DNA from: Candidatus Limnocylindrales bacterium | Lineage (GTDB): Bacteria; Chloroflexota; Limnocylindria; Limnocylindrales; CSP1-4 | Direction: 5' to 3' | NCBI GenBank assembly: GCA_035699725.1 | Contig: DASSPG010000218.1 | Span: 1 to 60,840 of the forward strand | Length of the DNA stretch: 60,840 nt | Part shown: positions 3,506-53,800 of the stretch, in pieces | How positions within the stretch are numbered: position 1 is the stretch's first letter | Layout: each line of letters starts with the position of its first letter | Program-made: the position numbers and the translations under genes | The notes under the pieces: generated by a model | The model's database searches: none | What the model saw: only the letters and a program-made list of their open reading frames with translations | Told to the model about the DNA's origin: nothing

Positions 3506-3580
3506 TGGCGAGTGGCCAAGCGGTAAGGCGCCTGACTCTGGATCAGGAGACCGAAGGTTCGAATCCTTCCTCGCCAGCCA
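3506..3580 (+). tRNA. tRNA-Gln (anticodon CTG), CCA encoded
   Basis: The cloverleaf folds by hand. Acceptor TGGCGAG/CTCGCCA (U1-A72). D arm GCC-AAGCGGTAA-GGC. Anticodon stem CCTGA/TCAGG with loop CTCTGGA. T arm GAAGG-TTCGAAT-CCTTC. Discriminator G followed by CCA. The D arm matches E. coli tRNA-Gln as I recall it. Confidence 0.93.
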
Positions 3581-5805: not shown

Positions 5806-6303
5806 TTACAGACCAAAGCGCATGAGGATCATGCACGTGAAGATGACGAAGAATCCGAGGAGCTCAAGCGATACCAGCTTCTTCACCCGGTTCGTGGCGG
5901 CCTCCAGCTCCGGCGTCGGCGTCCCGTCCACGTTGAGCGGCACGCGATCCATCGCGCGCAGTGCGGGGATGATGACGAACAGTCCCCAGAGGTAGGTCAG
6001 GATCGCCACGACGAGCGCGACGAGCCAGGTCAGGCCATACGCGGTGCCCAGGAGGACATCGAGGCTCTTGATCGGCCCCAGGAGTGTCCCCCGGATGAAT
6101 CCGAGCGCGATGACGAGTGGCGCCACGACATGGAGGATCGGCGTCGCCCGCGACCCGATGAGCGAGGCGACCTCACGCTGGGCCACGATCGGCAGGCGGT
6201 TGATGGCCGGGATGACGATCACATCGAGGACGAGCGCGTTACCGAACCACAGGATGCCGAGCAGGACGTGGAGCCACTGCACACCGAACACGACCCAGTC
6301 CAT
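5806..6303 (-). CDS. integral membrane protein (four predicted helices; CopD/DUF4149-like N-terminal WLHVLLGILWFG motif)
   Basis: Hydrophobicity pattern. A His-x-Trp-x-Gly motif sits in helix 1. The family assignment is tentative. Confidence 0.55.
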   Translation of the reverse strand: MDWVVFGVQWLHVLLGILWFGNALVLDVIVIPAINRLPIVAQREVASLIGSRATPILHVVAPLVIALGFIRGTLLGPIKSLDVLLGTAYGLTWLVALVVAILTYLWGLFVIIPALRAMDRVPLNVDGTPTPELEAATNRVKKLVSLELLGFFVIFTCMILMRFGL

Positions 6304-6493
6304 GATCGTCTAGTCCCACCATATGCTTGGCAGAGGGGTGCCGCTCCGAGTTCGCACGACGTGCCGACGTCCCTGTCGGTCCATGCGCCGATGACCCTAC
6401 GCCGAGGTTCGGGCGGGGTCCATCCCACGAATCTGGTGCCATCCCTTGTCGCGGACGCCTGCGCGACGCCACAATCGGACGGTGGCTACCACG

Positions 6494-7633
6494 ATGAACG
6501 GCGGTCGCGCGCGCTTCGTGCGGCTGCTGCACCGCGGGCTGGACCTTGGCGCCTATTTCGACGCCGCCGATCGGACCCTGGCCGGCATCGTTCCGTTCGA
6601 CAGCTCGTGCTGGCTCAGCATCGATCCCGGCATGAGACTGCCGACGAGCCACTTCTCGCGGCAGTTCGGCACGGATCACCTCAGGGCGCTGGCTGCGAAT
6701 GAGTTCCTCGAGGATGACCTGAACAAGTTCGCCGACCTGTCGCGCGCCAGCCGACCCGTCGGCATCCTGAGCCAGGCGACAGGCGGCGACCTTCGCCGCA
6801 GTGCGCGCTTCGTGCAGGTGCTCGAGCCGCATGGGTACGGTGCCGGCGACGAGTTGCGAGCCGTGTTCCGCGACGGTCAGTCGGTGTGGGGTTGCGCAGC
6901 CTTCCATCGTCGGCGGGGCACATTCGATGACCGCGAGGCGCGGCTCGTCGACGACGTGGGCGGCTACGTCGCCGAGGGCATCCGCCGGGCGATCCTCCGG
7001 ACCGCCCTGGCCGTCGACAGCGAGCCGGATCCGCCGGGCCTCATCATCCTCCGCGGTGACGACTCGGTCGAGAGCCTCACGCCCGCGGCCAGGCGCTGGC
7101 TCGGCGAGATCTTCGACTCGTTCGGCGAATCAATGGACGTGCCGATGACCGTGCTGAGCGTCGCCCACCAGGCTCGGCGTGCGGCCGGCGGCGGTGCCGA
7201 GGACGTCGCCACCGTTCGCCTACCGAGGCGGGTGGGAGGATGGCTTCGCCTCGACGCCTCGCTGCTCGACGCAGAGACCCATGGTCGGGTGGCGGTCATC
7301 GTCCACCCTGCCCGCGAGCCAGAGGTCGCCAGCCTGATCGTCGAGGTCTACGGGCTGTCAGCGCGCGAGCGCGAGGTGACCCGCCTCGTGCTGCATGGCC
7401 GCTCGACGCAGGACATCGCGGGCCTCCTCCAGGTCTCTCCGTACACCGTCCAGGACCACCTGAAGTCGATCTTCGCGAAGGTCGGCGTGCGCAGCCGCCG
7501 AGAGCTCGTGGCACAGCTCTTCCTCCGGCAATGCGCGCCACGACTCGAGGCCGGCACAGGCGTGGCTGCTGATGGTTGGTTCGTGAGTGGGCCCGTCGCG
7601 GCGTTGCCTTCGGACGATGTCGCCGTCACGTGA
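6494..7633 (+). CDS. LuxR-family transcriptional regulator with GAF-like N-terminal sensor region
   Basis: C-terminal HTH: LSAREREVTRLVLHGRSTQDIAGLLQVSPYTVQDHLKSIFAKVGV. ATG at 6494 was chosen; the track uses a TTG at 6446. Confidence 0.85.
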   Translation: MNGGRARFVRLLHRGLDLGAYFDAADRTLAGIVPFDSSCWLSIDPGMRLPTSHFSRQFGTDHLRALAANEFLEDDLNKFADLSRASRPVGILSQATGGDLRRSARFVQVLEPHGYGAGDELRAVFRDGQSVWGCAAFHRRRGTFDDREARLVDDVGGYVAEGIRRAILRTALAVDSEPDPPGLIILRGDDSVESLTPAARRWLGEIFDSFGESMDVPMTVLSVAHQARRAAGGGAEDVATVRLPRRVGGWLRLDASLLDAETHGRVAVIVHPAREPEVASLIVEVYGLSAREREVTRLVLHGRSTQDIAGLLQVSPYTVQDHLKSIFAKVGVRSRRELVAQLFLRQCAPRLEAGTGVAADGWFVSGPVAALPSDDVAVT

Positions 7634-7839
7634 TCCGCTCGCGTGAGCCAGGTACGCCGCCCTGCGTCCTCGGGCGGGAGTCGGTCGCCTGCGGGTGGCG
7701 CGGGCGAAGGTCCGACGGGGAATGAGAGCTGCGTGCGCCCGCACGCGTCCGCTCTCTAACCTCGCCCTCATGTGCTCTTCAGCTCGGAGGTCGATCGTCG
7801 TGCGTGGCGCAATCGGCGCTGGACTGCGAGGTGATCGCG

Positions 7840-8082
7840 ATGATGGGCTGGAACGTGGATGGCGGGGCTTGGCTCGGCATGGGATTCGGGATGCTGGTGT
7901 GGCTCGTCCTTGCCGTCATGGTCGTCTGGCTGATCGTTCGGGGCCTGATCGAGCTCGAACGGACGCGGACCGGAGGCGACGTGGGCTCACGGCCGGACGA
8001 GATCCTGCGCGAACGATTCGCTCGCGGGGAGATCGACCCTGACGAGTTCGAGCGGCGGCTGGCGCTCCTCCAGGGCAAGTAG
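7840..8082 (+). CDS. SHOCT-domain membrane protein
   Basis: One TM helix ([21 protein letters not shown]) followed by the SHOCT signature [22 protein letters not shown]. The start is ambiguous (GTG 7804, ATG 7840 or ATG 7843). Confidence 0.75.
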
Positions 8083-8132
8083 CCGGCCAGGCGCCGGGCA
8101 AACCCGTGGTGCGCGACTCGTATGCTGCCGGC

Positions 8133-8813
8133 ATGAGCGACGCAACGCGCATCCTCGTCGTCGATGACGACCCCAAGCTACGGACCGTCGTCCGGCGTGG
8201 CCTCGCCTACGAGGGGTACCGCGTCGTCGAAGCCGCCAGCGGCGAGGAGGGCCTCGAGAAGGCTCGCGAACACCTCCCCGAGCTCGTCGTCCTCGACATC
8301 ATGCTGCCGGGCATCGATGGTCTCGAGGTGACGCGGCGGCTTCGAGCAGCCGGTGACGAGATCTCCATTCTGATGCTGACCGCGAGAGACGAGGTCAGGG
8401 ACCGGGTGGAGGGCCTGGAGACAGGCGCGGACGACTACCTCGTTAAGCCATTCAGCTTCGAGGAGCTGCTCGCGAGGGTCCACGCGCTCCTTCGACGGCG
8501 GCAGACGCCGGCTGGCGAGGTCCTTCGCTTCGCCGACCTCGAGCTCGATGTCGACGCCCGTGAGGCAACGCGCGGCGGCCGGACGATCGAGCTGACAACG
8601 ACCGAGTTCAATCTCCTGCTCCTGTTCATGCGACATCCTCGGAAGGTGCTCACGCGGGACGTGATCATGGAGCGCGTCTGGGCCTACGACTTCGAGGGAG
8701 AGTCAAACGTCCTCGAGGTGTACGTCCGATACCTACGCAGCAAGCTCGAGTCGAACGGCGAGTCGCGCCTGATCCACACGATCCGGGGCGCGGGCTACGT
8801 CCTCAAGGAGTGA
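8133..8813 (+). CDS. OmpR-family response regulator
   Basis: Receiver motifs [29 protein letters not shown] and DDYLVKPF. Winged-helix C-terminus ending [11 protein letters not shown]. Confidence 0.92.
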
Positions 8814-10216
8814 ACCGCCTTCCGCGCCGGCGATCGATTCGGACGCGACTGGCGCTCATCTACACCGGCCTGCTGGCGGTCGCACTGATCGCCTTCGGCG
8901 CAGGTCTTTTCTTCGTGCTCCGCGCGCAGCTCGAGGCCTCGTTCGATGTCGGCCTCCGTGCAAACGCGGAGCATGCCAGCGGCGCCTTCGCCCAGGACGT
9001 CGATGCCTCGGGTGCGCTCAGCCCATCGCAACGACTGGTCGACCAGTTCGCATCGACCGGCGGAAGGGTCGTCATCCTCGACCCGAGTGGGTCGGTCCTC
9101 GGCGATTCAGCGGGGTCGGGCGCCACGCCGCTGCCGGTCGCCGCTGAGGACCTCATCGCCGCCGATCGGCGTGACCACGTGACCCGCGATGTTCGATGGG
9201 CCGACGACGTGCTCCGCATCACCGTCGAACCGGTCATCGCCGCGGACGGCCGTCAGATGGGCTACGTGGCATGGGCGGAATCGACGCGGCGGCTCCGGGA
9301 TGTCCTGACGGATGTCGGCTCGTCACTCGTTCTGGGTGCATGTGTCGTCGTGCTCCTCGCTCTCGCGGGCGGTCTTGTTCTCGCCCGCGGTGCGCTCGCG
9401 CCGGTGGCCGAGGTGACGGACACCGCGCGGGCCATCGCCCTGTCTGGTGACTTCGCGGCACGCGTTGACGCCGGCCGGCCCGGCGACGAGGTCGGCGACC
9501 TGGCCGTCGCGTTCAACGAGATGTTGGCCGCCCTCGAGCACAACCACCAGACCCTCCAGCGATTCCTCGGCGACGCCTCTCACCAACTGCGCACCCCGCT
9601 GACGACCATCCGGGCGAACCTCGACCTTGCCAGGCGACAGGACGTGCCCGACGAGGACCGACGCGCGATCCTCGCGGACGCCCGCGACGAGGCCGAACGG
9701 ATGGCCCGCCTCGTGACGGACCTGCTTGCGCTCGCTCGGGCGGACTCAGGCGCACGGCTGGACGTCGCTCCGGTCGAGCTCGACGCCGTCGTGGTCGAAG
9801 CCGTTCGGCGCCAGGCACAGGCCGCGTCGCATGTGAAGATGACCGTCTCGGTCGCACCGGCCCTCGTGGATGGCGACCGGGACCGGCTCGCCGACCTCCT
9901 CGGCGTCCTCCTCGACAACGCCGCGCGCTACACGCCGGACGGCGGCTCGGTCGATACGGAGCTGTCCATCAACGATGGACTGGCCGTGCTGCGGGTCAGT
10001 GACACCGGGATCGGGCTGACCGACGAGGATCGCCGACGCGTCTTCGAGCGGCTGTACCGCGGAACGCGAGCGCGCGGGCTCCGTCCGTCGGGCACTGGTC
10101 TGGGGCTTGCCATCGCACGGTGGATCGTCGAGTCGCATGGCGGGACGATCGAGCTCACGAACCGTGACGGCGGCGGTGCTCGAGCGACGATCATGCTGCC
10201 TCTGCACGAGCCATGA
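8810..10216 (+). CDS. sensor histidine kinase (2 TM, extracytoplasmic loop, HAMP, HisKA, HATPase_c)
   Basis: 4-nt overlap with the response regulator gene. H-box [17 protein letters not shown]-box [10 protein letters not shown]-boxes SDTGIGL and [10 protein letters not shown]. Confidence 0.92.
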
Positions 10217-10401
10217 GAGCACTGGGACGAGCCGCACCGTCGTGAGGCCGTCAGCCGCCCCTGGCACCCGACCAGGGTCCGTCTCCGATGCCGTGGCGGC
10301 TGGATCCGACGAAGTCTCACTCCCGGTTCAGGTTCGCCTCAGCGTCGTCGATCACGCTCGGGGACAGATGCAGCCATGGAGCTGCGACAGAGGCTCTGAC
10401 G

Positions 10402-11496
10402 ATGCTCCTGGCCCGACGAAACCTGACTCACGACCGCGTCCGGCTCATCCTCAGCATCACCGGCGTCGCCCTTTCGGTGATGCTCATCCTCCTCCTCGCG
10501 GGGTACCTGGCCGGCATCTACCGGCAGGCCTCGGCGTACCTCGAGAACGCGCCGGGCTCCGTCGTGGTCGCCCAGAGGGGCGTCCGGACATTTGCCGGAT
10601 CGAGCTCATTCCTCTCGCCCGAGATCCTCGGGGCCGTGCGGGCGACGCCCGGCGTGGAGCGGGCCGTCCCGATCGTCATGCTTGCGGCGGTGCTGGAGCT
10701 CCATGACCGCAAGGAGATCGCGAGCCTCGTCGGCTACGACCCCAGCCAGGGGGGCGGGCCGTGGAAGCTCGCCGATGGCCAGGTTCCCGCGGCAGACGAC
10801 GAGGTGGTCGTGGATCGGGTGCTGGCAAACCAGCACGGCATCGCCGTGGGGACAGCGGTGCGGATCCTCGATCGGCAGTTCACGGTCGTCGGGCTGTCAG
10901 AGGGCACGTCGCTCTGGATCGGCTCCTATGCCTTCGCACGTGCGGCGGCTGTGCAGGGCCTGCTCCGTGCGCCCGGCGTCTGGAGCGCGATCTTCGTCAT
11001 GCCGGCCGCCGGTGTCAGCGAGGCTGACGTCGTCCAGGCCGTCTCCATCCCCGGGGTCGAGGCGTTCGCGAAGATCGAGAAGATCGAGGCCGACCGGAAG
11101 GGGATCGCCCGGATCTACGACGCGCCGCTCGGGCTGATGGTCGCGATCGCGTTCGTGGTCGGCGTGCTTGTCGTTGGGCTCGTGATCTACACGGCGACGA
11201 TCGAGCGACGCCGCGAGTACGGCGCGCTCAAGGCCATCGGGATGCGCAACAGGACGCTGTACCGGCTCGTGGCGAGCCAGGCACTGATCGCCGCGGTCGC
11301 GGGCGGGCTGCTCGGCGTGGCCCTGGCTGTTGGCGTCGGCGCACTGCTCAATGCGCTTCGTCCACAGTTCCCGGTCGTCATCGAGCTCGAGGCGATCGCG
11401 AAGGCGCTCGCCGCGAGCCTCGCGATGGCGGTCATCGCGGCACTCGCTCCGGCTCGCGCGATGGCCGGCCTGGCGCCGGCGGAGGTGTTCCGATGA
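10402..11496 (+). CDS. ABC transporter permease, FtsX/MacB type (large extracytoplasmic domain)
   Basis: N-terminus MLLARRNLTHDRVRLILSITGVALSVMLI, an extracytoplasmic loop of about 200 aa, and a C-terminal FtsX helix bundle (RRREYGALKAIGM). ATG at 10402 was chosen. Confidence 0.88.
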   Translation: MLLARRNLTHDRVRLILSITGVALSVMLILLLAGYLAGIYRQASAYLENAPGSVVVAQRGVRTFAGSSSFLSPEILGAVRATPGVERAVPIVMLAAVLELHDRKEIASLVGYDPSQGGGPWKLADGQVPAADDEVVVDRVLANQHGIAVGTAVRILDRQFTVVGLSEGTSLWIGSYAFARAAAVQGLLRAPGVWSAIFVMPAAGVSEADVVQAVSIPGVEAFAKIEKIEADRKGIARIYDAPLGLMVAIAFVVGVLVVGLVIYTATIERRREYGALKAIGMRNRTLYRLVASQALIAAVAGGLLGVALAVGVGALLNALRPQFPVVIELEAIAKALAASLAMAVIAALAPARAMAGLAPAEVFR

Positions 11497-12617
11497 GCGC
11501 GACATGGCTGCTGGCCAGACGCAACCTCCTCCGCAGTCGCGCCCGCCTGACCGTGTCGATCGGAGGGGTTGCCCTGGCCTTGACACTCGTCCTCGCCCTC
11601 GACGCGATCTTCGAGGGCGTTTCGCGCCAGCTGACCGCATACATCGACCGGTCGGGCGCCGACGTCTGGGTGGCCCAATCCGGCGTCCGCAACCTTCATA
11701 TGGTCGCCTCGTGGCTGCCGGCGACGACGACCGACGCCGTGGCCGATCTCGAAGGTGTCGCACTCGCCGAGCCGATCCTGTACACCACCGACTCCATGTC
11801 GGCCGGCGACGAGCGCGGCTGGGCGTATGTCATCGGCCTCACGCCCGACGCCACGATGGGCGGTCCGTGGGACGTCGTCGAAGGTGCCGGGCAAGCAGGT
11901 TCCGGCGAGGCCGTCATCGACCGGCGCTTCGCGCAGCGGGCCGGCGTCGGGATCGGCGACCGGGTGACCCTGCTCGGCCGCGAGTTTCGGATCGCGGGCC
12001 TCACCGACGGGACCGCGAGCCTCGTCAACTCGGTCGCCTTCGTATCGTTCGACGACTTCGCCGCGCGGCGCGGTGGCGAGCCGGCCGTCAGCTTCGTCCT
12101 CGTCAGGGCAGCCGACGGCGTCTCGCCCGACACGCTCGCGCAAGTCATCGGATCGAACGTCGACGGCGTGACCGCGCAGTCGAGGGTGGCGTTCGGCCTC
12201 GCCGAGAGGAAGCTGGCGCTGGACATGAGTGGCGACGTCATCTCGATCATGAACGTGATCGGGTTCGTCGTGGGCCTCGCCGTCGTCGCTCTCACGGTCT
12301 ACATCGCGACGCTGGCGCTGCGGCGGGAGTATGGCTCGCTCAAGGCCGTTGGCGCGTCCGGTGGGTACCTGTATCGCGTCGTCCTCGCCCAGGCGGGACT
12401 GAGCGTCGCCGCCGGCTTCCTCGCCGCGGTCGCCATCACGGCCGCGTTGAGCCTGATCGTCCCGCGCACCGGCGCGAACCTTGAGCTCGCGATCGCCGGC
12501 GCATCGCTCACCAAGGTCGGCATCGTCGCCGCCGTGATCGCCGCGCTCGCCGCGCTGCTCCCGATCCGCCAGATCGCGAATCTCGATCCCGCCCTCGTCG
12601 CCCGGGAAGGAGTCTGA
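11493..12617 (+). CDS. ABC transporter permease, FtsX/MacB type (paralog of the preceding gene)
   Basis: 4-nt overlap with the previous permease. Same architecture: LLARRNLLRSRARLTVSIGGVAL and LRREYGSLKAVGA. Confidence 0.88.
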   Translation: MSATWLLARRNLLRSRARLTVSIGGVALALTLVLALDAIFEGVSRQLTAYIDRSGADVWVAQSGVRNLHMVASWLPATTTDAVADLEGVALAEPILYTTDSMSAGDERGWAYVIGLTPDATMGGPWDVVEGAGQAGSGEAVIDRRFAQRAGVGIGDRVTLLGREFRIAGLTDGTASLVNSVAFVSFDDFAARRGGEPAVSFVLVRAADGVSPDTLAQVIGSNVDGVTAQSRVAFGLAERKLALDMSGDVISIMNVIGFVVGLAVVALTVYIATLALRREYGSLKAVGASGGYLYRVVLAQAGLSVAAGFLAAVAITAALSLIVPRTGANLELAIAGASLTKVGIVAAVIAALAALLPIRQIANLDPALVAREGV

Positions 12618-12620
12618 ACC

Positions 12621-13529
12621 GTGAGCGCCCTCACCCTTGACGTTCAACACGTCACGAAGCGCTACGGGGACGGCGATACCGCAGTCACAGCCGTCCGCGA
12701 CGTGTCGCTTGCGGTCCAGCCCGGCGAGGTCGTCCTCATCATGGGCCCCTCCGGCTCGGGCAAGACGACCCTCCTGTCGATGATGGGCGCCCTTCTGCGA
12801 CCCACCTCCGGCGCGATTCACCTCGACGGGTCGGCGCTCAGCGAGCTCTCCGAGGGCCGCCTGCCGGCGATCCGCCTCCACCAGTTCGGGTTCATCTTCC
12901 AGGACTTCAATCTCCTCTCGGCACTCACGATCCGGGAGAACGTCGCTCTGGTGGCCGAGCTCGCCGGGTCGAAGCGCAAGGCGGCCCGCGAGAAGGCGAC
13001 CGAGATCCTGACCGACCTCGGTCTCGGTGCGCGGCTCGACTTCCTCCCGGAGAAGCTGTCGGGCGGCGAGAAGCAGCGGGTGGCCATCGCGCGGGCGCTC
13101 ATCAACGATCCCGCGCTCATCCTGGCGGACGAGCCCACGGCCAACCTCGACTCCAAGATCGGCCACGAGATCATGCGGCTCCTGCGGAGCATCGCGAAGG
13201 AGCAGGGCCGGAGCGTGGTGATCGTCAGCCACGATCAGCGGATCCGCGACATCGCCGACCGCGTGCTCTGGCTCGAGGACGGCGAGTTCAAGGACGTCGT
13301 CAGGATGGCGACCGACCCGGTCTGTGGCATGACCGTCGAGCGGGATGACGCGGTCAGCGTCGAACGCGACGGAGAGACCTACTCCTTCTGCTCGAAGGGC
13401 TGTCGCGCGGAGTTCCTTGGCGGCGCCAAGAGCGACGGCCTGACGCACGGCCGGGCCATCGTCCGTCGAGCCCGTTCGGTGCTGGCTCAGCTGGCTTCCG
13501 GGACGGACGATCGCCAGTCCAGCGGCTGA
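12621..13529 (+). CDS. ABC transporter ATP-binding protein (MacB/LolD type) with C-terminal YHS/TRASH metal-binding domain
   Basis: Walker A GPSGSGKTT, signature LSGGEKQR, Walker B LILADEPT. The C-terminal DPVCGMTVERDDAVSVERDGETYSFCSKGCRAEF is the YHS pattern. GTG start 3 nt after the permease stop, with GGAAGGAG upstream. Confidence 0.9.
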   Translation: MSALTLDVQHVTKRYGDGDTAVTAVRDVSLAVQPGEVVLIMGPSGSGKTTLLSMMGALLRPTSGAIHLDGSALSELSEGRLPAIRLHQFGFIFQDFNLLSALTIRENVALVAELAGSKRKAAREKATEILTDLGLGARLDFLPEKLSGGEKQRVAIARALINDPALILADEPTANLDSKIGHEIMRLLRSIAKEQGRSVVIVSHDQRIRDIADRVLWLEDGEFKDVVRMATDPVCGMTVERDDAVSVERDGETYSFCSKGCRAEFLGGAKSDGLTHGRAIVRRARSVLAQLASGTDDRQSSG

Positions 13530-13821
13530 TGTCGTCGTCGAGGCGGCTCGCGCGGCTGTCGCGACGCGTGCATCGGGCGACGCGCCCGAACGAGGCAACG
13601 GGCGCCCGAGCTCGTCGGCCGGCTCCTCGACACCCGGCGCTGCCCCTCACGTCCAGGGCTGGGCCGCCGGCCGCCCTGGAGAGCCCCGGGTCGCTCCCTC
13701 CGCGAGGCAACGGCCGGGATGGCGAGCGCTGGAGTTCCACGTTCTAAGCCCGCTCTCAGGTGCGCCTCACTCGCGGCTCACGCCCGACCCCGAGCCTAGG
13801 ACCGATCAGGAGGGATCCTCC

Positions 13822-14196
13822 ATGAAGCCGGTCGCTCGAACTGCACTGCTGATGAGCCTCGTGATCGCACCCGTTGCCATTGGCGCGTGCCAGGCCTCGC
13901 CGCCCGGAGCGCCGACCGTCGTGTTCGAGGAGATGCGCTTTGTCCCGAACCGCCTCGACGCCATGGTGGGCGAGCCGCTTCGGGTGACGCTCATCAACAA
14001 GGGCCGGGAGCGCCACGACCTCAGCTTCCCGGCACTCCACATGCCCGGGCTCCAGGGTCTCGAGGCCATCCTCGAACCTGGTGAGACTCGGACCATCACG
14101 CTCACCTTCGACCGGCCCGGCACGCACACGTTCCAGTGCAGTGTTCCGGGCCACGCGATTTCCGGCATGACTGGAGCCGTGTTCGTCCGGCCGTGA
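13822..14196 (+). CDS. blue (type-1) copper protein, azurin/auracyanin-like, probable lipoprotein
   Basis: AGGAGGGA lies upstream. Signal plus lipobox: LLMSLVIAPVAIGAC. Copper ligand pattern: His in RERHDLSF, then FQCSVPGHAISGM (C-x4-H-x4-M). Confidence 0.85.
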   Translation: MKPVARTALLMSLVIAPVAIGACQASPPGAPTVVFEEMRFVPNRLDAMVGEPLRVTLINKGRERHDLSFPALHMPGLQGLEAILEPGETRTITLTFDRPGTHTFQCSVPGHAISGMTGAVFVRP

Positions 14197-14323
14197 CCGA
14201 GATGGAGACCGCGACCGATCGAGCCCCAGCCGTCCGGCACGCCGGCGACCGGCGTGAGCGGCTCGCACTCGGGCAGCACGACCGGCGGGGCGCGACGCCT
14301 CCATCGTCGGCGGGAGCACCCCG

Positions 14324-15388
14324 ATGAGCTCGACCCAACCGGTAGCCGCCCGGCCCGGTCCGCGCGGCGAGCAGGTCATCGAGATCGTCGCCGACCACGG
14401 GTACCGGCCGCAATCGATCGTCGCGAGAGCTGGGGTACCGCTGCGCCTCGTGTTCCGCCGGCGCGACGACGACGCCTGCATGGACCGAATCGTCTTCTCG
14501 TCTCCCCATCTCGACCGCCGCCTTGTGCGGGGCTCGGCGACCACGATCGTGCTGCCCGCGCAACCGGTGGGAGAGATCCGGTTCACCTGCGGCATGGGGC
14601 GCTACCACGGCGAGATCGAGCTCCGGGCCGAAGCCTCGTCGTCGATCGCGGCCGTGCGCGGCGCGGTGACGGACAGATTGAGGCACGGGTGGCGGCGCAT
14701 CCGCGGTCCGGTTCCACCAACCGTTGAGCAGGAGGCCATGGCCATTGTCCGATCCCGCCTCGAAGGACGAGATCAACGAGGGAGACTTCCGGCCCGAACG
14801 CGCGGGTCTGGACAACCACGGAACCATCCCATGGGAGGCACCGTCGTGAGGCACGAGCCCGAATCGACCCGCAGCGAACGTCGGGTCGCGGCGATCGCCG
14901 ACAGGCGAACGGAACGCCGTCGCAGACGCTCCGTCACCGTTCAGCACGAGCAGCGCAGGAATGCTCGGGTCCGGACTGCGGCGTTCGGCGTCGTCGCCGT
15001 CGTCGTCCTTGGCGCGGGTGTGTACCTCGCCGCCGGTGATCTGTTCGGCCAACGGGGCGCAGCGACGACCGCGGACACCATCCCCGTGCGGATGAGCATG
15101 GCCGGCTTCACGCCCGGCGAGGTCCGCATTCCCGCCGGCGAGACCGTCGCGCTCGAGCTCTGGACGACGGACGCAGCGCCCCACCTGGACAACGGCGTCC
15201 ACACGATGATCAGCGATGAACTCGGGATCTACGAGGAGCTGCCCGCGGCGGGCCCGACCGGCGAGAGCCGGCGGGTGGTCGAGTTCGAGGCGCCCGCGAC
15301 GCCGGGCACGTATGACATCTACTGCGACACGTGCTGCGGCGGGAAGGAAAGCCCGACCATGCACGGCAAGCTCATCGTCGAGGCATAG
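14324..15388 (+). CDS. bitopic protein with an N-terminal Cupredoxin_1-type domain, an Arg-rich linker, one TM helix and a C-terminal cupredoxin with a Cys-rich CuA-like motif
   Basis: The N-terminal domain (aa 16-100) carries DDDACMD and IRFTCGMGRYHG. The TM helix is AAFGVVAVVVLGAGVYLAAG (aa 219-238). The C-terminal domain carries NGVHTM and YCDTCCGGKESPTMHG. There is no in-frame stop between the two halves. Confidence 0.75.
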   Translation: MSSTQPVAARPGPRGEQVIEIVADHGYRPQSIVARAGVPLRLVFRRRDDDACMDRIVFSSPHLDRRLVRGSATTIVLPAQPVGEIRFTCGMGRYHGEIELRAEASSSIAAVRGAVTDRLRHGWRRIRGPVPPTVEQEAMAIVRSRLEGRDQRGRLPARTRGSGQPRNHPMGGTVVRHEPESTRSERRVAAIADRRTERRRRRSVTVQHEQRRNARVRTAAFGVVAVVVLGAGVYLAAGDLFGQRGAATTADTIPVRMSMAGFTPGEVRIPAGETVALELWTTDAAPHLDNGVHTMISDELGIYEELPAAGPTGESRRVVEFEAPATPGTYDIYCDTCCGGKESPTMHGKLIVEA

Positions 15389-15390
15389 GC

Positions 15391-16296
15391 GTGTCTCCCC
15401 GCCAGCCTGCGACCTGTCACGACTCGGCCCCCACCGGGTCACTCGCGGCGACGCCGGTTCTCCCCCCGCCGGCGTCGCCCCTCATCCTCGGCCTCCCCCG
15501 GCCGGCGTTCGTGCTGGCGACGGCACTCCTCGCCGTGGGGCTGGGCGCGTCGGCCTACGTCATCGCCGTCCCGTTCCAGGCGGCCTCCTTCGGCGGCCTG
15601 ACCGTGCCGGCGGTCCTCGCCGCAGGGATCGCCGACGGGTTCAACCCGTGTGCCTTCGCCCTGCTCGTCCTCTTCGCGACCTACACGCTCACACTCGTCA
15701 ACTCCGTCACCGCGGACGGCAGCCCGACGATCGAGGCGCGGCGCCGTCTGCTCGGGGCGGGCTCGCTCTACGTCGGCGCCGTCTGGGTGACCTACTTCGT
15801 CATCGGGCTCGGGCTGCTGTCGTTCCTGGGCTGGCTCGGCCAGGACCATCTGGTGACGCGCGTTGCGGCGGTCCTCGCGCTGGCGATGGCGCTGTGGATG
15901 CTCAAGGACGTCTTCCTTCCCGGTTGGGGGCCATCGATGATGGCGCCCGCCGGCACCCACGGCAGGATGCACAGGGCGATTGAACGCGGCGGCCTCGCGG
16001 GGATGCTTCTCGCCGGCGTCCTGGTCGGCATCTGCACCGTGCCCTGCTCGGGCGCGATCTATCTCGACATCGTCGCCGTCCTCAACGCCTCGGGCGGCGG
16101 CCCGACCGGTCTCGCCCTCCTGGCGCTCTACAACATCGCCTTCATCGTGCCGCTCGTGGCTCTCCTCGGCGCCGTCAGCAACCGGCGCGTGCTGGGTCGG
16201 CTCGGGCGCTGGAACCGGTCGAACAGCCCGTGGATCAAGGCAGGCCTCGCGCTTGCGGTCCTGGCGATGAGCTTCGGCTTGCTGGTGACCACGTGA
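15391..16296 (+). CDS. ccdA: CcdA/DsbD-family thiol:disulfide electron-transfer membrane protein
   Basis: GTG lies 2 nt after the previous stop. Conserved membrane Cys motifs: GFNPCAFALLVLF and GICTVPCSGAIY. Six predicted helices. Confidence 0.8.
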   Translation: MSPRQPATCHDSAPTGSLAATPVLPPPASPLILGLPRPAFVLATALLAVGLGASAYVIAVPFQAASFGGLTVPAVLAAGIADGFNPCAFALLVLFATYTLTLVNSVTADGSPTIEARRRLLGAGSLYVGAVWVTYFVIGLGLLSFLGWLGQDHLVTRVAAVLALAMALWMLKDVFLPGWGPSMMAPAGTHGRMHRAIERGGLAGMLLAGVLVGICTVPCSGAIYLDIVAVLNASGGGPTGLALLALYNIAFIVPLVALLGAVSNRRVLGRLGRWNRSNSPWIKAGLALAVLAMSFGLLVTT

Positions 16297-16430
16297 TGAC
16301 GGTTGCCGTCGATCCCGTGGCGTTCTGGCTCGGCGGGTTCGCGATCCGCTGGTACGGGCTGATCGCGGCGGCGGCGACAGCAGCGACGGCCATCGGTCGC
16401 TCGACGCGGCCAATGACCGGCCATCACTGA
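16296..16430 (+). pseudogene. lgt: probable remnant of prolipoprotein diacylglyceryl transferase (lgt), N-terminal 44 codons only
   Basis: MTVAVDPVAFWLGGFAIRWYGLI matches the conserved Lgt N-terminus (F-x-I-G-x-x-x-I-R/H-W-Y-G-L). The ATG overlaps the ccdA stop (TGATG). The ORF then degenerates and stops, and only about 90 nt remain before the convergent ackA. Confidence 0.4.
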
Positions 16431-16520
16431 CCGCCAGCGTCGCGTCCTGACCCGTTCGCCGCAACGCTGCGCCGGGCTCCCGCCCGGTCGGCCGCCGTTC
16501 GCGACGCCGCCGCCGGCGGG

Positions 16521-17645
16521 CTAGCGAGCGATCTTCGCGACGGCCTCGGCGATCACCACGTCCTCGCGCGACTCGATGCGGAGGATCGCCGGCGCCCCGG
16601 CCGCCGTCGAGATCGGCCCGTCCTGCTCGACGTCAGCGGGCACGATGGGCGCCACGCCGATGCCCCCGAGGCGGTCCACGATCCGCGCCCGGATGGTCCC
16701 GGAGTGCTCGCCGATGCCACCGGTGAAGACGACCGCGTCGACGCCGGTCAGGCACGTCGCAGCGGCGGCGATGCCGGCCGCCGCACGCCGCGTGAACATC
16801 GCCAGCGCGAGTCGCGCCCGCGCGTCGCCGGCAGCCTCGGCCGCGAGCAGGTCCCGCACGTCCGACGACAGGCCGGACACGCCCAGCAGGCCCGACCCAT
16901 GCTCGAGGGCCTCGGCCAGCTGCGCCGCGGTCGCATGGCCTTCGCGGATCAGCGCCAGCACGATCCCGGGGTCGATCGACCCCGACCGACTGCCCATCAT
17001 CAGGCCCTCGATCGGGGTCATGCCCATCGACGTGTCGACCGAACGACCGCCCTCGACGGCGGTGACGGAGCAGCCGCTGCCGAGGTGGGCGACGACGAGC
17101 CGGAGCGCTCCCGATGGCCGCCCGAGCAGCTCGGCGGCGCGGGTGACGGACCACGCGACCGACAGGCCATGGAATCCGTATCGGCGCACGCCCCAGGCCT
17201 CGGACCAGTGGGCCGGCACGGGATAGCGGTACGCGACCTCCGGCAGGCCGGCGTGGAAGGCCGTGTCGAAGGCTGCCACGTGGACGGCGTCGGGCAGCGC
17301 CGCCCGAGCCGCGCGGATCGTCTCGGCCGCGATCCGGTTGTGGAGCGGCGCATACGGCTCCAGGTCGTCGATCGCACCGAGGACGGCGTCGTCGACGCGG
17401 ACGGGACCCGTGTGGAGCGCTCCACCGTGCACGACCCGGTGACCCACCGCGGCGATCGACTCCCGGACGACCCCGGCTGCCGCGACGTCCCGCAGGACGG
17501 CATGGATGGCCGATGCGCGATCGGGCGAACGTGTCGCGTCGGCGCCCCATGCGATGGCCGTCGCGGCCAGCGCGTCCCGGCCGGGCGGCTCGATGACCGA
17601 CGCCTTCAGCGAGCTCGACCCCGGGTTCAGGACGAGAATCCGCAT
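16521..17645 (-). CDS. ackA: acetate kinase
   Basis: MRILVLNPGSSSLKASV N-terminus, VGHRVVHGG, FDTAFH, RRYGFHGLS and ends in VFTGGIGEHS. Start re-picked at 17645; the track extends to 17942. Confidence 0.95.
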   Translation of the reverse strand: MRILVLNPGSSSLKASVIEPPGRDALAATAIAWGADATRSPDRASAIHAVLRDVAAAGVVRESIAAVGHRVVHGGALHTGPVRVDDAVLGAIDDLEPYAPLHNRIAAETIRAARAALPDAVHVAAFDTAFHAGLPEVAYRYPVPAHWSEAWGVRRYGFHGLSVAWSVTRAAELLGRPSGALRLVVAHLGSGCSVTAVEGGRSVDTSMGMTPIEGLMMGSRSGSIDPGIVLALIREGHATAAQLAEALEHGSGLLGVSGLSSDVRDLLAAEAAGDARARLALAMFTRRAAAGIAAAATCLTGVDAVVFTGGIGEHSGTIRARIVDRLGGIGVAPIVPADVEQDGPISTAAGAPAILRIESREDVVIAEAVAKIAR

Positions 17646-47218: not shown

Positions 47219-49194
47219 CGGCTGGGCAGATCGCGCCGGCCGGTTCGGGCTTCCTGCCTCGAGCCGGCCTCGACGCGCTCATTGCGCTCCTCGAGGATGA
47301 CGGCCGGCGGGTGATCGGCCCCACGATCGCGGACGGCGCGATCGTGTACGACGAGATCCACGCCGCCACGGACCTGCCGCTGGGCTACGGCGACGAGCAG
47401 GCACCCGGTCGCTACCGGCTCCACGATACGGGCGGGGAGCGGGCGTTCGGCTACGCCGTCGGACCGACGAGCTGGAAGGCGTGGACGTTCCCGGCCCGGG
47501 TGCCGATCGGCACCGCCGAGCGCGATCAGGACGGGCACCTGCGCTTCGCGCCCGTCGTGGCCGATCCGCCTCCGGTCGCGTTTCTCGGCGTCCGCGGCTG
47601 CGAGCTCGCGGCGCTGCGGATCCAGGACCGCGTCCTGGCCGAGGGCCCCGCCGTCGACCCGGACTTCGTCGCGCGTCGCCGATCCGCGCTGATCATCGCG
47701 GTCGAGTGCACCGTGGCCGCTTCGACCTGCTTCTGCACCTCGATGCGGACCGGCCCCGAGATCGCCGACGACGCCGCGGATCTCGTGCTCACCGAGATCG
47801 CGGAGGGGTTCCTGGTCCGGGCCGGGACCGACGCCGGGAGGACCGTCGCGGAGCGCCTGCCGCTGGTCGCCGCCGGCGACGAGCAGACGTCACGCGGGCG
47901 GGCCGCGGTGGCGGCCGTTCGCGAGGCCATCGGGGATCCGGTCGCGCTCGACGGGCTCGCCGGCCGGCTCGCCGATCGGCTGGACGACCCGAAGTGGGCC
48001 GAGATCGCCGAGCGCTGCCTCGCGTGCGCGAACTGCACGCTCGTCTGCCCCACCTGCTTCTGCACCTCGGTGGGGCAGCGCTCCGACCTCGACGGGCGGG
48101 CGTCCGTGACCGAGCGAACCTGGGACTCCTGCTTCTCGGGCGACTTCGCGAAGGTCGCCGGGGGGACGTTCCGGGGACGCCGCGAGGACCGCTACCGGCA
48201 ATGGCTGACGCACAAGTTCTCGACCTGGGTCGACCAGTTCGGGACGTCCGGGTGCGTCGGCTGCGGCCGCTGCATCGCGTGGTGCCCGGTCGGGATCGAC
48301 GTCCGTGCAGAGCTCGCAGCGATCGCCCCGCCGCCGACCCGCCGGAGCATCCGGAGCGCGCCGGTGGCGGCCGGCGGCCCGGGTGAGTTCATCACGGCGC
48401 GGATCGACAGCCTGCATCCCGAGACCCCGGACACGACGACACTGGTCCTTGCCGATGTCCATCCCGCGATCGCGGAGGGCGCACCGGGGCAGTTCGTCAT
48501 GGTCACCCGGCCGGGCCTGCCGGCCGTGCCGATCTCGATCTCGCGCTACCACCCGGCCGCCGCCTCGATCGAGCTATCGATCCGGGCGGCCGGTCCGGCG
48601 ACCGCGACGATCTCGGGGCTCGCCGCGGGCGACGAGGTCGGCCTGCGCGGACCGCTGGGCCGCGGGTGGCCGATCGATCAGGCCGACGGACGTGACGTCA
48701 TCGTCGTGTCCGGCGGGATCGGGCTCTCGCCGGTTCGACCCCTGGTCGACGCGCTCCTCGACGAGCGTGACCGGTATGGCGTCATCCGGATCTTCCACGG
48801 CGCGCGGACACCGGCCGATCGACCCCACGCCGACGATCTCGCGACGTGGGCCGACCGACCCGATGTCGAGCTGGCCACGACCGTCGACCGCGCCGACGAG
48901 GCCTGGCCGGGAGCGGTCGGCGTGGTCACCCACCTGTTCGACCAGGCGCGCTGGGCGGGTCGTGAGGCGATCGCGTTCGTGTGCGGACCCGAACGGATGA
49001 TGCAGGCGACCGCCGCCGTGCTCCTGGATCGGGGGCTCCGGCCGGAGCGGGTCTTCGTGTCGCTCGAGCGGCACATGGACTGCGGGATCGGGCTGTGCGG
49101 CCACTGTCAGATGGGCAAGGCGTTCGTGTGCCGCGACGGGCCGGTGTTCTCGCTGGCCGAGCTCGGCTCGAACTTCGGACGGGAGGGCGTGTGA
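47212..49194 (+). CDS. fused hydrogenase diaphorase subunits: AsrA/HydB-like 4Fe-4S protein plus PyrK/HydG-like FAD/NAD(P) and [2Fe-2S] protein
   Basis: The N-terminal half carries CLACANCTLVCPTCFCTS and GCVGCGRCIAWCPVGID. The C-terminal half carries FITARIDSLHPETPD (FAD barrel), VVSGGIGLSPVRPL (NAD) and CGIGLCGHCQMG. It is a single uninterrupted frame of 660 aa. Confidence 0.82.
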   Translation: MVTAGQIAPAGSGFLPRAGLDALIALLEDDGRRVIGPTIADGAIVYDEIHAATDLPLGYGDEQAPGRYRLHDTGGERAFGYAVGPTSWKAWTFPARVPIGTAERDQDGHLRFAPVVADPPPVAFLGVRGCELAALRIQDRVLAEGPAVDPDFVARRRSALIIAVECTVAASTCFCTSMRTGPEIADDAADLVLTEIAEGFLVRAGTDAGRTVAERLPLVAAGDEQTSRGRAAVAAVREAIGDPVALDGLAGRLADRLDDPKWAEIAERCLACANCTLVCPTCFCTSVGQRSDLDGRASVTERTWDSCFSGDFAKVAGGTFRGRREDRYRQWLTHKFSTWVDQFGTSGCVGCGRCIAWCPVGIDVRAELAAIAPPPTRRSIRSAPVAAGGPGEFITARIDSLHPETPDTTTLVLADVHPAIAEGAPGQFVMVTRPGLPAVPISISRYHPAAASIELSIRAAGPATATISGLAAGDEVGLRGPLGRGWPIDQADGRDVIVVSGGIGLSPVRPLVDALLDERDRYGVIRIFHGARTPADRPHADDLATWADRPDVELATTVDRADEAWPGAVGVVTHLFDQARWAGREAIAFVCGPERMMQATAAVLLDRGLRPERVFVSLERHMDCGIGLCGHCQMGKAFVCRDGPVFSLAELGSNFGREGV

Positions 49195-53533: not shown

Positions 53534-53800
53534 CTGGGTTCCTCCTCGACACCAGTCTGACGTCTCCGGGCGGGCGCGGGGGCGCGGCGCGGACGTCGCG
53601 ACCGTCCGACCCCACGGCGGCGTGGCCCGGTCCGCGACGTGGCACCCGCAACTCGGCCGAGCCGATGCGCCGCCCGGCACGGCCCTGCTCCGATCGAGAC
53701 CCGCAGGGGCGCGCCAACCCGTCGGCGCCGGCGGGCTGCAGCGTGGGCGCGGAAGGGGGACCATGGGCCGGACGAGCCACGCCGTCCGCCGGAGGCACCG

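Follow-up and report, generated by a model that had tools for sequence, protein, structure and literature searches.

Bacterial copper export is attributed to P-type ATPases and to resistance-nodulation-division (RND) pumps. One machine of the ATP-binding cassette (ABC) type, HrtBA, clears a toxic, metal-containing ligand out of the outer leaflet. In copper tolerance there is also ScsB of the Scs system, a reductant shuttle of the CcdA/DsbD family. In Campylobacter jejuni, the fetMP-fetABCDEF genes supply a periplasmic metal-binding protein (FetP), a separate protein with a YHS domain, an ATPase, thiol-redox proteins and two paralogous permeases, neither of them dispensable, and all of these are needed together (PMC10783030). 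The locus described here lies in 60,840 nucleotides (nt) of DNA from Candidatus Limnocylindrales bacterium (GenBank assembly GCA_035699725.1, contig DASSPG010000218.1), and this whole stretch is called the window below. The locus is one copy, in part eroded, of a copper-defence gene island that is widespread in soil Chloroflexota. At the centre of the island is a conserved and uncharacterised ABC machine of the MacB/HrtB type, the ATPase of which has a Cys-rich tail of the metal-binding YHS/TRASH type.

Our account, held with moderate confidence, makes this machine a type VII ABC that would be gated by Cu(I) and would act on the outer side of the membrane, in addition to canonical copper homeostasis. 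Three operons would be under the control of a CopS-like kinase and an OmpR-type regulator, which would activate them via tandem CTCA repeats with a period of 11 bp. Two different permeases of the FtsX/MacB type would work with an ATPase dimer, whose C-terminal YHS/TRASH tails, each with three cysteines (Cys3), lie on the cytoplasmic side. Cu(I) would bind these tails, in many relatives probably delivered by a single-cysteine HMA-like protein encoded upstream, and the Cu(I)-bound tail would license ATP hydrolysis. The permease pair would then, like HrtBA and LolCDE, expel copper or copper-loaded lipid or lipoprotein species from the outer leaflet, and would pump no ions through the bilayer. The accessory modules are a blue-copper lipoprotein and a membrane-anchored CxxCC cupredoxin to which a CupA-type chaperone is fused. 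The cysteines of that cupredoxin would be kept reduced by a third such module, a reductant shuttle of the CcdA/DsbD-like kind.

Domains were called with Pfam profiles and subfamilies with NCBIfam models, the latter judged by their curated cut-offs. Transmembrane helices were read as hydrophobic segments in the window proteins. The ABC machine is encoded by three genes. Permease 1 (10402-11496, + strand) matches MacB_PCD (5.8e-14) and FtsX (8.5e-16). Permease 2 (11493-12617, +) overlaps it by 4 nt and matches MacB_PCD (2.3e-19) and FtsX. After a gap of 3 nt follows the ATPase (12621-13529, +), of LolD/MacB type with a YHS tail (ABC_tran 6.9e-35, YHS 4.8e-9). Each permease has four transmembrane helices, with an extracytoplasmic domain of about 200 amino acids (aa) between the first and the second.

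An AlphaFold2 (AF2) model of permease 2 (pLDDT 81, pTM 0.69) has HrtB as its top fold match (7w78_B, E 3.7e-19, TM-scores 0.67/0.72). Further matches are MacB, LolE/LolC, Spr0695 and YbbP, and then BceB and FtsX. In sequence the permeases are far from all solved members. The permease pair and the ATPase form a type VII ABC, with the MacB/HrtB/LolCE fold. A first-pass annotation of this DNA had proposed a MacB-type ABC with a YHS/TRASH tail on its ATPase, and Pfam, the fold match and the conserved Cys3 all bear this out.

It is conceivable that the ABC is a true transmembrane exporter, in which Cu(I) passes from the HMA-like protein to the YHS tail and on through the permeases, parallel to CopZ and CopA. 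A cytoplasmic HMA-like gene product and a likewise cytoplasmic Cys3 tail do mirror the logic by which CopZ feeds the metal-binding domain of CopA, and the copper-island context fits as well. However, type VII folds (MacB, LolCDE, HrtBA) have no transmembrane substrate channel, and the permeases have this very fold. The window permeases also contain zero cysteines, and therefore no CPC-type site in their transmembrane helices, while the conserved methionine at the outer end of the second helix is not kept in the Rhodococcus relative. This makes a true exporter distinctly unlikely.

That methionine was also tried as a Cu(I) site in its own right and was dropped, given that the Rhodococcus relative lacking it is of the YHS type. 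In permease 2, H69-M70 is invariant (72 sequences). His69 is extracytoplasmic and specific to this branch: the metal-island relatives from Rhodococcus and Thermococcus retain it, and it is found neither in permease 1 nor in DevC-like relatives.

The nucleotide-binding domain of the ATPase (residues 1-224) is LolD/MacB-like, and its best PDB sequence matches are MJ0796, the same domain of MacB, Spr0694, YtrE and LolD (E 1e-53 to 1e-46). In this comparison the tail is not covered by any solved type VII ATPase chain. It spans residues 231-266 (nt 13311-13418) and scores 36.5 bits against Pfam YHS, where the cut-off is 30.3. Its cysteines, C235-x21-C257-x3-C261, fit the YHS/TRASH pattern C-x19-22-C-x3-C. 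Of 82 sequences, 96-99% share C235, M237, C257 and C261, and the motif D232-P233-V234-C235-x-M237 ... C257-x2-G260-C261 is essentially invariant. An AF2 model of the ATPase, built on a 38-sequence alignment, is poor (pLDDT 54), and only the tail looks folded (residues 231-270, block pLDDT 67-84, beta strands and a short helix).

TRASH is documented as the Cu-sensing domain of archaeal CopR (PMC7830388). From this precedent, the invariant Cys3 and Met, a YHS-EAL fusion and an HMA-like neighbour, we infer that the ATPase tail is a Cu(I)-binding sensor. The fusion is found in the closest relative of the window locus, L007, a Chloroflexi MAG (metagenome-assembled genome). There, at L007 10812-11900 and directly after the ABC ATPase, an N-terminal YHS domain is fused to EAL, a cyclic di-GMP phosphodiesterase. 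This suggests that YHS is used as a metal-sensing input domain.

Relatives were found in a scan of 185,579 species genomes, which led to 80 loci; gene counts were taken from the 58 loci of at least 12 kb. A gene is counted as a neighbour if it lies within 10 kb, and gene calls in the loci come from tblastn and open reading frames (ORFs). The relatives are nearly all MAG contigs, and enrichment baselines were reasoned rather than computed. The first-pass annotation had pointed to Actinobacteria as the search space, while the host of the window is itself a Limnocylindrales MAG, in the Chloroflexota. Most of the 80 loci are from this phylum as well, namely from Limnocylindria, Anaerolineae, Ktedonobacteria and Dehalococcoidia. 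Other hosts are Rubrobacteraceae, other Actinomycetota, and the cultured Thermaceae Meiothermus hypogaeus and Calidithermus chliarophilus.

Conservation of the neighbourhood in other genomes, on which the earlier proposal leaned, was checked, and the two permeases and the ATPase occur together in 58 of 58 loci. The YHS tail is there in 57. Nearly all of 8000 scored candidates pass E 1e-20, and the best 120 of these, at 74-100% identity and from public genomes and metagenomes, almost all have the tail. Three MAGs hold two YHS-tailed ABC copies each (L010/L016, L053/L056, L079/L084).

What surrounds this trio is copper. A P-type ATPase is within reach in 30 of the 58 loci, an HMA gene in 26, a two-component pair in 25-26 and lgt in 22. 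CcdA-like genes follow with 16, blue-copper lipoproteins (cupredoxins) with 14, CupA-like genes and cytochrome b with 11 each, and CsoR with 5. There are 43 neighbouring P-type ATPase ORFs. The signatures of Cu(I) P1B-1 pumps (NX6YNX4P and MxxSS, with CPC wherever the fragment includes transmembrane helix 6) are found in 28, and CPH in 4. Pfam-labelled neighbourhoods agree that these are copper islands. Given that the ABC of the relatives sits beside P1B ATPases, CsoR and HMA proteins, it supplements canonical copper homeostasis and does not replace it.

Permease 1 is directly preceded, in about 20 loci, by a gene for a 77-aa protein of the HMA fold (for example L003 7543-7776). Its conserved GLGCGGxG loop has a single cysteine and takes the place of the canonical GMTCxxC. 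This protein looks like a dedicated partner of the ABC.

Distant permease relatives (27-32% identity) also sit in metal islands, on Rhodococcus and Thermococcus plasmids. Plasmid pRWAY03 of Rhodococcus sp. WAY2 has one permease and a YHS-tailed ATPase beside two lgt genes, and this ABC also adjoins CcdA/TlpA/ResB/CcsB, DUF305 and a CopY-like repressor. On the plasmid of Thermococcus peptonophilus, the ABC pair stands among two P-type ATPases, a CopR-like helix-turn-helix-TRASH regulator, a CcdA-like protein, a methyltransferase and a SHOCT protein. Overall, we have middling confidence that the island is modular and horizontally spread, of the copper-defence type, and trimmed in this window.

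Still more distant permease relatives are DevBCA-like pumps with a membrane fusion protein (MFP) and TolC, adjoining polyketide synthases. The copper-island ABC is therefore a distinct branch of a DevCA-like group. This ancestry, together with best NCBIfam matches to DevA (245.8 bits, cut-off 295.8) and DevC (43 and 36 bits, cut-off 290), brings up a less exciting explanation. The ABC could be a generic DevCA-type exporter of lipids or peptides that hitch-hikes with metal islands, its YHS tail being a structural zinc ribbon. However, such an exporter would hardly share its operator with cupredoxin, CsoR and P1B genes, or have a dedicated HMA-like gene upstream. The YHS tail and the copper context are also kept in the 32%-identical Rhodococcus relative. 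Furthermore, Pfam labelling shows no MFP (HlyD/DevB) or outer-membrane channel, either in the nine genes of the window or in the neighbourhoods of relatives. A generic exporter is highly improbable.

The first-pass annotation regarded the absence of canonical copper parts as a feature of the system. CopA, CopZ and an intact CsoR are indeed found nowhere in the 60.8-kb window. L007 tells another story. It is collinear with window positions 8117-16367 at about 80% nucleotide identity, and carries extra genes exactly at the large spacers of the window. These had been taken for mere spacers, and turn out to contain deletion scars and a common operator.

At the first spacer (10217-10401), L007 has a lipoprotein and a small membrane protein, of which the window keeps nothing recognisable. 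Both L007 genes (6598-7185 and 7029-7682) lie between the kinase and permease 1 and are missing from the window. The lipoprotein has no Pfam match, while the membrane protein has a CCAHH motif and a weak Cation_efflux match (5.9e-5); an operator site is found at L007 6678-6703. At the second spacer (13530-13821), L007 has the YHS-EAL gene and a methyltransferase, and the window keeps roughly 100 nt of YHS-EAL. This scar (13546-13643, +) has 77% blastn identity to L007 11074-11175. The third spacer (14197-14323, +) is a csoR remnant, recognised by L007 alignment and tblastn. Both ends of csoR are kept and about 174 nt of its core are deleted. The 5' part encodes 36 aa at 50% identity (E 3.7e-4), and the 3' end reads RLALGQ...GAPR up to the stop codon.

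Last comes an lgt stub (16296-16430, +), with a weak Pfam LGT match (0.003). Over its first 21 codons it has 95% identity to the complete lgt of L007, and the resemblance breaks off near 16367. In L007, the complete lgt is followed by a small His-rich membrane protein and then by a CopA whose N-terminus carries an HMA domain. This means that csoR, lgt and the downstream copA of the nearest relative are lost in the window copy. Because L007 keeps these parts where the window has scars, the absence of canonical copper parts is secondary loss and not design. That part of the earlier picture, in other words, was an artefact of a csoR reduced to a remnant and an lgt cut after 21 codons.

A further break is found inside the ORF of the 354-aa fusion protein described below. 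The L007 orthologue has an intact SHOCT segment, which in the window is out of frame. The GC content at third codon positions drops within 14684-14860, to 0.6 after values of about 0.9, and the +1 frame there contains a SHOCT-like motif (KDEINEGDFRPER). The cause is either an error of assembly or two frameshifts that compensate each other.

Purifying selection maintains the intact genes: their ratios of nonsynonymous to synonymous substitution (dN/dS, window genes against L007 orthologues) are 0.08-0.26. The CcdA-like protein is at 0.08, the kinase at 0.14, the cupredoxin lipoprotein at 0.17 and permease 1 at 0.22. For the 354-aa protein, the C-terminal domain is at 0.15 and the N-terminal domain at 0.26, and the broken linker between them is at 0.37.

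The operator in the spacers is a tandem repeat. The upstream regions of loci with an 85-93% identical regulator have in common three or four CTCA boxes at 11-bp spacing. In the 60.8-kb window, the pattern YTMA-N7-YTCA-N7-YTCA occurs in only three places, all on the + strand, where 100 shuffles lead one to expect 0.00. The first place (7756-7781, CTAA-N7-CTCA-N7-TTCA, three repeats with an 11-bp period) is 58 nt before the SHOCT start and precedes the SHOCT-regulator-kinase unit. Equivalents lie upstream of the regulator gene in L018, L024, L032 and L040. The second (10316-10341, CTCA-N7-TTCA-N7-CTCA) is 60 nt before the start of permease 1. The third (13744-13780) has four 11-bp-period repeats (CTAA, CTCA, CTCA, CTCA), 41 nt before the start of the cupredoxin lipoprotein, and is kept before the orthologous cupredoxin in L003, L006, L007, L014 and L019.

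Across loci, the CTCA repeat is found ahead of the ABC operon in 25 cases. In 19 of these it stands 21-39 nt ahead of the HMA-like gene, and in the other 6 its distance from permease 1 is 49-100 nt. In relatives it also precedes cupredoxin, regulator, P1B ATPase, CsoR and cytochrome b genes. The SHOCT-regulator-kinase, ABC and cupredoxin units share this operator and would form one regulon. That these genes make up one copper-linked unit was the central claim of the first-pass annotation, and it stands: the relatives sit in copper islands, and the window has the operator of the three units at no other place. For regulators of the OmpR/PhoB family, sites usually take the form of tandem 11-bp repeats. 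We know of no described CopR/CusR box that corresponds to the CTCA-N7 repeat. Scans of 7500-16700 for sigma-70 promoters and terminators gave nothing exceeding shuffles, and Rfam has no RNA family within the cluster.

The first unit contains the two-component system. The response regulator (8106-8813, +; Response_reg and Trans_reg_C) is of the OmpR/PhoB family and overlaps the sensor histidine kinase (8810-10216, +; HAMP, HisKA and HATPase_c) by 4 nt. Against the NCBIfam model cztR_silR_copR the regulator scores 243.2 bits, with a cut-off of 279.2, and NblR is slightly higher at 250 bits. Orthologues with 85-93% identity are found in 9 other loci, and identity to L007 is 93% (tblastn). The kinase has two transmembrane helices and an outside loop of about 135 aa. 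Its best NCBIfam match is the heavy-metal family cztS_silS_copS (220.5 bits, cut-off 292.55). Ahead of both is a small SHOCT membrane protein (7840-8082, +; Pfam SHOCT 4.5e-8), with one transmembrane helix at residues 15-33 and a C-terminal SHOCT domain. A relative of it is found in 8 of 58 loci. Flux sensing of the Bce type was considered and rejected, on account of that outside loop and of permeases with 4 transmembrane helices rather than the 10 of BceB. Nothing suggested a phage or defence reading.

The third unit starts with a type 1 cupredoxin lipoprotein (13822-14196, +; Cupredoxin_1 4e-10, Copper-bind 2.9e-6). It has the lipobox AIGAC and, as read from the sequence, the ligands H65 or H73 and then C106-x4-H111-x4-M116, which is a classic type 1 (blue copper) site. 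Against the CopI equivalog NF051440 it scores 46.7 bits where the cut-off is 280, and only the last 41 residues align. The motifs FQCSVPGHAISGM, FTCGMG and YCDTCCGGKESPTMHG can be read directly in the cluster sequence.

Next is the 354-aa fusion protein of two domains (14324-15388, +; Cupredoxin_1 twice). It has a CupA-type domain (residues 14-98), a linker, a transmembrane helix (residues 219-237) and an extracytoplasmic cupredoxin with YCDTCCGGKESPTM. The N-terminal domain matches CupA (PDB 2mry/4f2e) with E 1.4e-12 over 85 residues, both Cu cysteines being aligned: DACMD and FTCGM here line up with SPCLD and FACGM of CupA. The match to the N-terminal domain of CopA, 4f2f, is 1.4e-5. By this homology, the FTCGMG domain is a predicted Cu(I) chaperone of the CupA type, itself a canonical copper part, where it had been counted as something outside that list. 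Because it has no signal peptide and is N-terminal to the single transmembrane helix, it should be cytoplasmic.

Two nucleotides further on is the CcdA/DsbD-like membrane protein (15391-16296, +), the stop of which overlaps the lgt stub by 1 nt (TGATG). The full ORF has no Pfam hit, and the trimmed core matches DsbD_TM at 5.8e-6 and 26.2 bits, just under the cut-off of 27.1. DsbD_TM is matched by 6 of 8 homologues (best 3.9e-7). The transmembrane cysteines in N16-P17-C18 and P149-C150 (VPC; T-x-PC) are invariant in these 8 homologues, which have 35-79% identity. A family profile run against PDB sequences found only chance kinase hits.

The coordinates and spacings of the nine same-strand (+) genes in the first-pass annotation were reproduced. 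The domains it named hold by Pfam for SHOCT, regulator, kinase, MacB_PCD/FtsX, ABC_tran, YHS and the cupredoxins, and the CcdA call is weaker.

A CxxCC cupredoxin with the invariant motif YCDxCCGG[KR]xxPxM directly precedes 16 of 16 CcdA-like genes in the loci. Conversely, 16 of 17 such cupredoxins are followed by a CcdA-like gene, Meiothermus included. The idea that the CcdA-like protein serves an extracytoplasmic cupredoxin gains support from this pairing. The two form an obligate two-gene module that is independent of the ABC, with which it is found in 16 of 58 loci. The pair, seen at window 15086-16296, at L069 14088-15375 and in 14 other loci, from Chloroflexota to Thermaceae, looks like a separate module that has yet to be characterised. 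Between the ABC and the cupredoxin/CcdA-like pair, Meiothermus hypogaeus (L069 12075-13418) has a beta-propeller lactonase-like protein with a Cu_amine_oxidN1 domain and then a DoxX protein.

Another role for the ABC would be in the maturation of cuproproteins or the acquisition of metal rather than in detoxification. It would then load, unload or support the exported cupredoxins, as FetBCD does for FetMP/P19 and NosDFY for NosZ. The component list does match that of C. jejuni fetMP-fetABCDEF (PMC10783030), and cupredoxins and ABC are under the same operator. Against this, cupredoxins are found in only 14 of 58 neighbourhoods and the CxxCC/CcdA pair in 16, and the neighbours are efflux-type P1B ATPases and CsoR. 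We hold such a role to be very unlikely. The earlier suggestion that the ABC metallates or remodels the cupredoxins finds little support for the same reason, because neither cupredoxins nor CcdA-like proteins are constant partners of the ABC.

Another recurring neighbour is a cytochrome b gene with two small unknown genes (L003 11063-12868, L088 18874-20894; 11 of 58 loci). It is sometimes accompanied by Rieske and multihaem proteins, and once has a CTCA operator upstream (L014 10954). This group may be an extracytoplasmic electron-transfer module tied to copper.

The lgt genes lead to a different possibility, in which the ABC acts on lipoproteins like LolCDE does. It would extract or clear copper-blocked lipoproteins or prelipoproteins from the outer leaflet, aided by the Lgt of the island and by a CcdA-like shuttle that keeps lipobox cysteines reduced. 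There is something to be said for this. There are two different permeases with a LolD-like ATPase, and LolE/LolC are among the top fold matches. The 22 loci with lgt count in favour, as do the two lgt genes beside the Rhodococcus relative and the adjacency of CcdA-like gene and lgt in the window, L007, L073, L074 and L081. It has also been described that Firmicute copper elements carry a second lgt and that diacylated lipoproteins bind copper (PMC8689077). But most neighbourhoods are without lgt, the NCBIfam model TIGR02212 for lolCE gives 20.9 bits against a cut-off of 362 (LolD: 215.6 against 307.75), and HrtB is the better fold match. We also know of no LolA-like acceptor in the host lineages. 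On balance, a dedicated lipoprotein role is unlikely.

Elements of this can be joined to the Cu(I)-gated machine that we favour. In this tentative and rather doubtful extension, the YHS-tailed ABC and its HMA-like partner would be a third engine of bacterial copper defence. It would be a Cu(I)-gated outer-leaflet extractor of copper or copper-poisoned lipoprotein precursors, working with the island-encoded Lgt and the CcdA-like reductant, and spread across Chloroflexota, Actinomycetota, Deinococcota and Thermococcales.

Several points weigh against a Cu(I)-gated ABC on the outer side of the membrane. In monoderm Chloroflexota there is no obvious compartment to receive what is expelled, and there is no gene for an MFP or outer-membrane partner. 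In the window the HMA-like partner gene is missing, and the island around the ABC is eroding. The YHS tail might instead be a zinc ribbon with a structural role, and the ATPase model is too poor for docking the tail. The response regulator, finally, is only the presumed binder of the CTCA repeats, judged from adjacency and repeat geometry.

If the favoured account is true, a MacB/HrtB-type ATP-driven machine in copper islands would be a new mechanism, acting on the envelope rather than on the cytoplasm. It would also be, to our knowledge, the first ABC motor regulated by a TRASH/YHS metal tail. The recurrent lgt and CcdA-like shuttle could link copper toxicity to lipoprotein maturation, and the CTCA-repeat operator marks a copper regulon in a phylum that has been little studied. 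The ABC module is present in cultured strains such as Meiothermus hypogaeus DSM 23238, Calidithermus chliarophilus DSM 9957 and Rhodococcus sp. WAY2, which makes it directly testable.

That the system is undescribed, as first claimed, still holds for the openly searchable literature. No description was found there of a YHS-tailed MacB-type ATPase or a YHS/TRASH-ABC copper system, and the only ftsX mentioned in the Corynebacterium glutamicum CopRS paper is the cell-division one. The YHS-tailed heterodimeric ABC also matches no curated NCBIfam equivalog.

Directly upstream of the island is a 165-aa membrane protein (5806-6303, -) with a faint DUF2214 match (E 0.044). Its gene adjoins one for a LuxR-type regulator (6446-7633), with no CTCA operator close by. 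The sole tRNA call backed by both ARAGORN and Rfam is tRNA-Gln (3506-3580). Three over-long tRNA-like calls by ARAGORN (91-93 nt, at 48648-48740, 53581-53673 and 56397-56487) have odd anticodons and are unconfirmed by Rfam.

Type VII ABC machines are not new, and the best fold match of permease 2 is a described one. HrtBA, the Gram-positive heme exporter (PDB 7w78), also does without an MFP or outer-membrane partner. However, HrtB is a homodimer while two different permeases are found here, identity is about 17%, and HrtA has no YHS tail. LolCDE similarly has two paralogous permeases (here with a 4-nt gene overlap) and one LolD-like ATPase gene, and here too there is a link to lipoprotein genes (lgt, cupredoxin). 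Yet the lolCE and LolD models stay below their cut-offs here, the host lineages are largely monoderm, and LolD lacks a metal-binding tail. We know of no LolA or LolB in these lineages. MacAB-TolC and DevBCA belong to the same permease/ATPase superfamily, but the present locus has no MFP or TolC gene, and has separate permease and ATPase genes, a heterodimer and a YHS tail.

Compared by components alone, the C. jejuni fetMP-fetABCDEF system has the same list as the window locus (PMC10783030). It is linked to iron uptake under iron limitation, however, and its YHS domain is on a separate membrane protein and predicted to be periplasmic (PMC10783030). It also has thioredoxins where a CcdA-like protein is found here.

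For the accessory proteins, the closest parallel is CupA/CopA of Streptococcus pneumoniae (4f2e, 2mry, 4f2f), given the CupA homology with both copper cysteines kept. Here the domain is fused to a transmembrane helix and an outer CxxCC cupredoxin, the second Met of the CupA CGMNM stretch is Arg, and CopA is absent from the window. With CopRS/CusRS, the locus has in common an OmpR-type regulator, tandem direct-repeat operators before target operons, and a kinase whose best match is a heavy-metal family; unlike in those systems, regulator and kinase both fall below the curated cut-offs. The CcdA/DsbD shuttles likewise have two conserved transmembrane cysteines, a copper context and a paired exported Cys-rich protein. 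The protein here differs in being just under the DsbD_TM cut-off and in having no thioredoxin-fold partner, its constant partner being a cupredoxin. The Firmicute copper-resistance mobile element with a second lgt and lit2 is also a copper island with its own lipoprotein diacylglyceryl transferase, but no type VII ABC is described there (PMC8689077). The lgt of the window is only a stub. The parts of the present system therefore come from known superfamilies. What appears to be new is the YHS-tailed heterodimeric ABC, its single-Cys HMA-like partner, the CTCA regulon and the constant copper-island setting.

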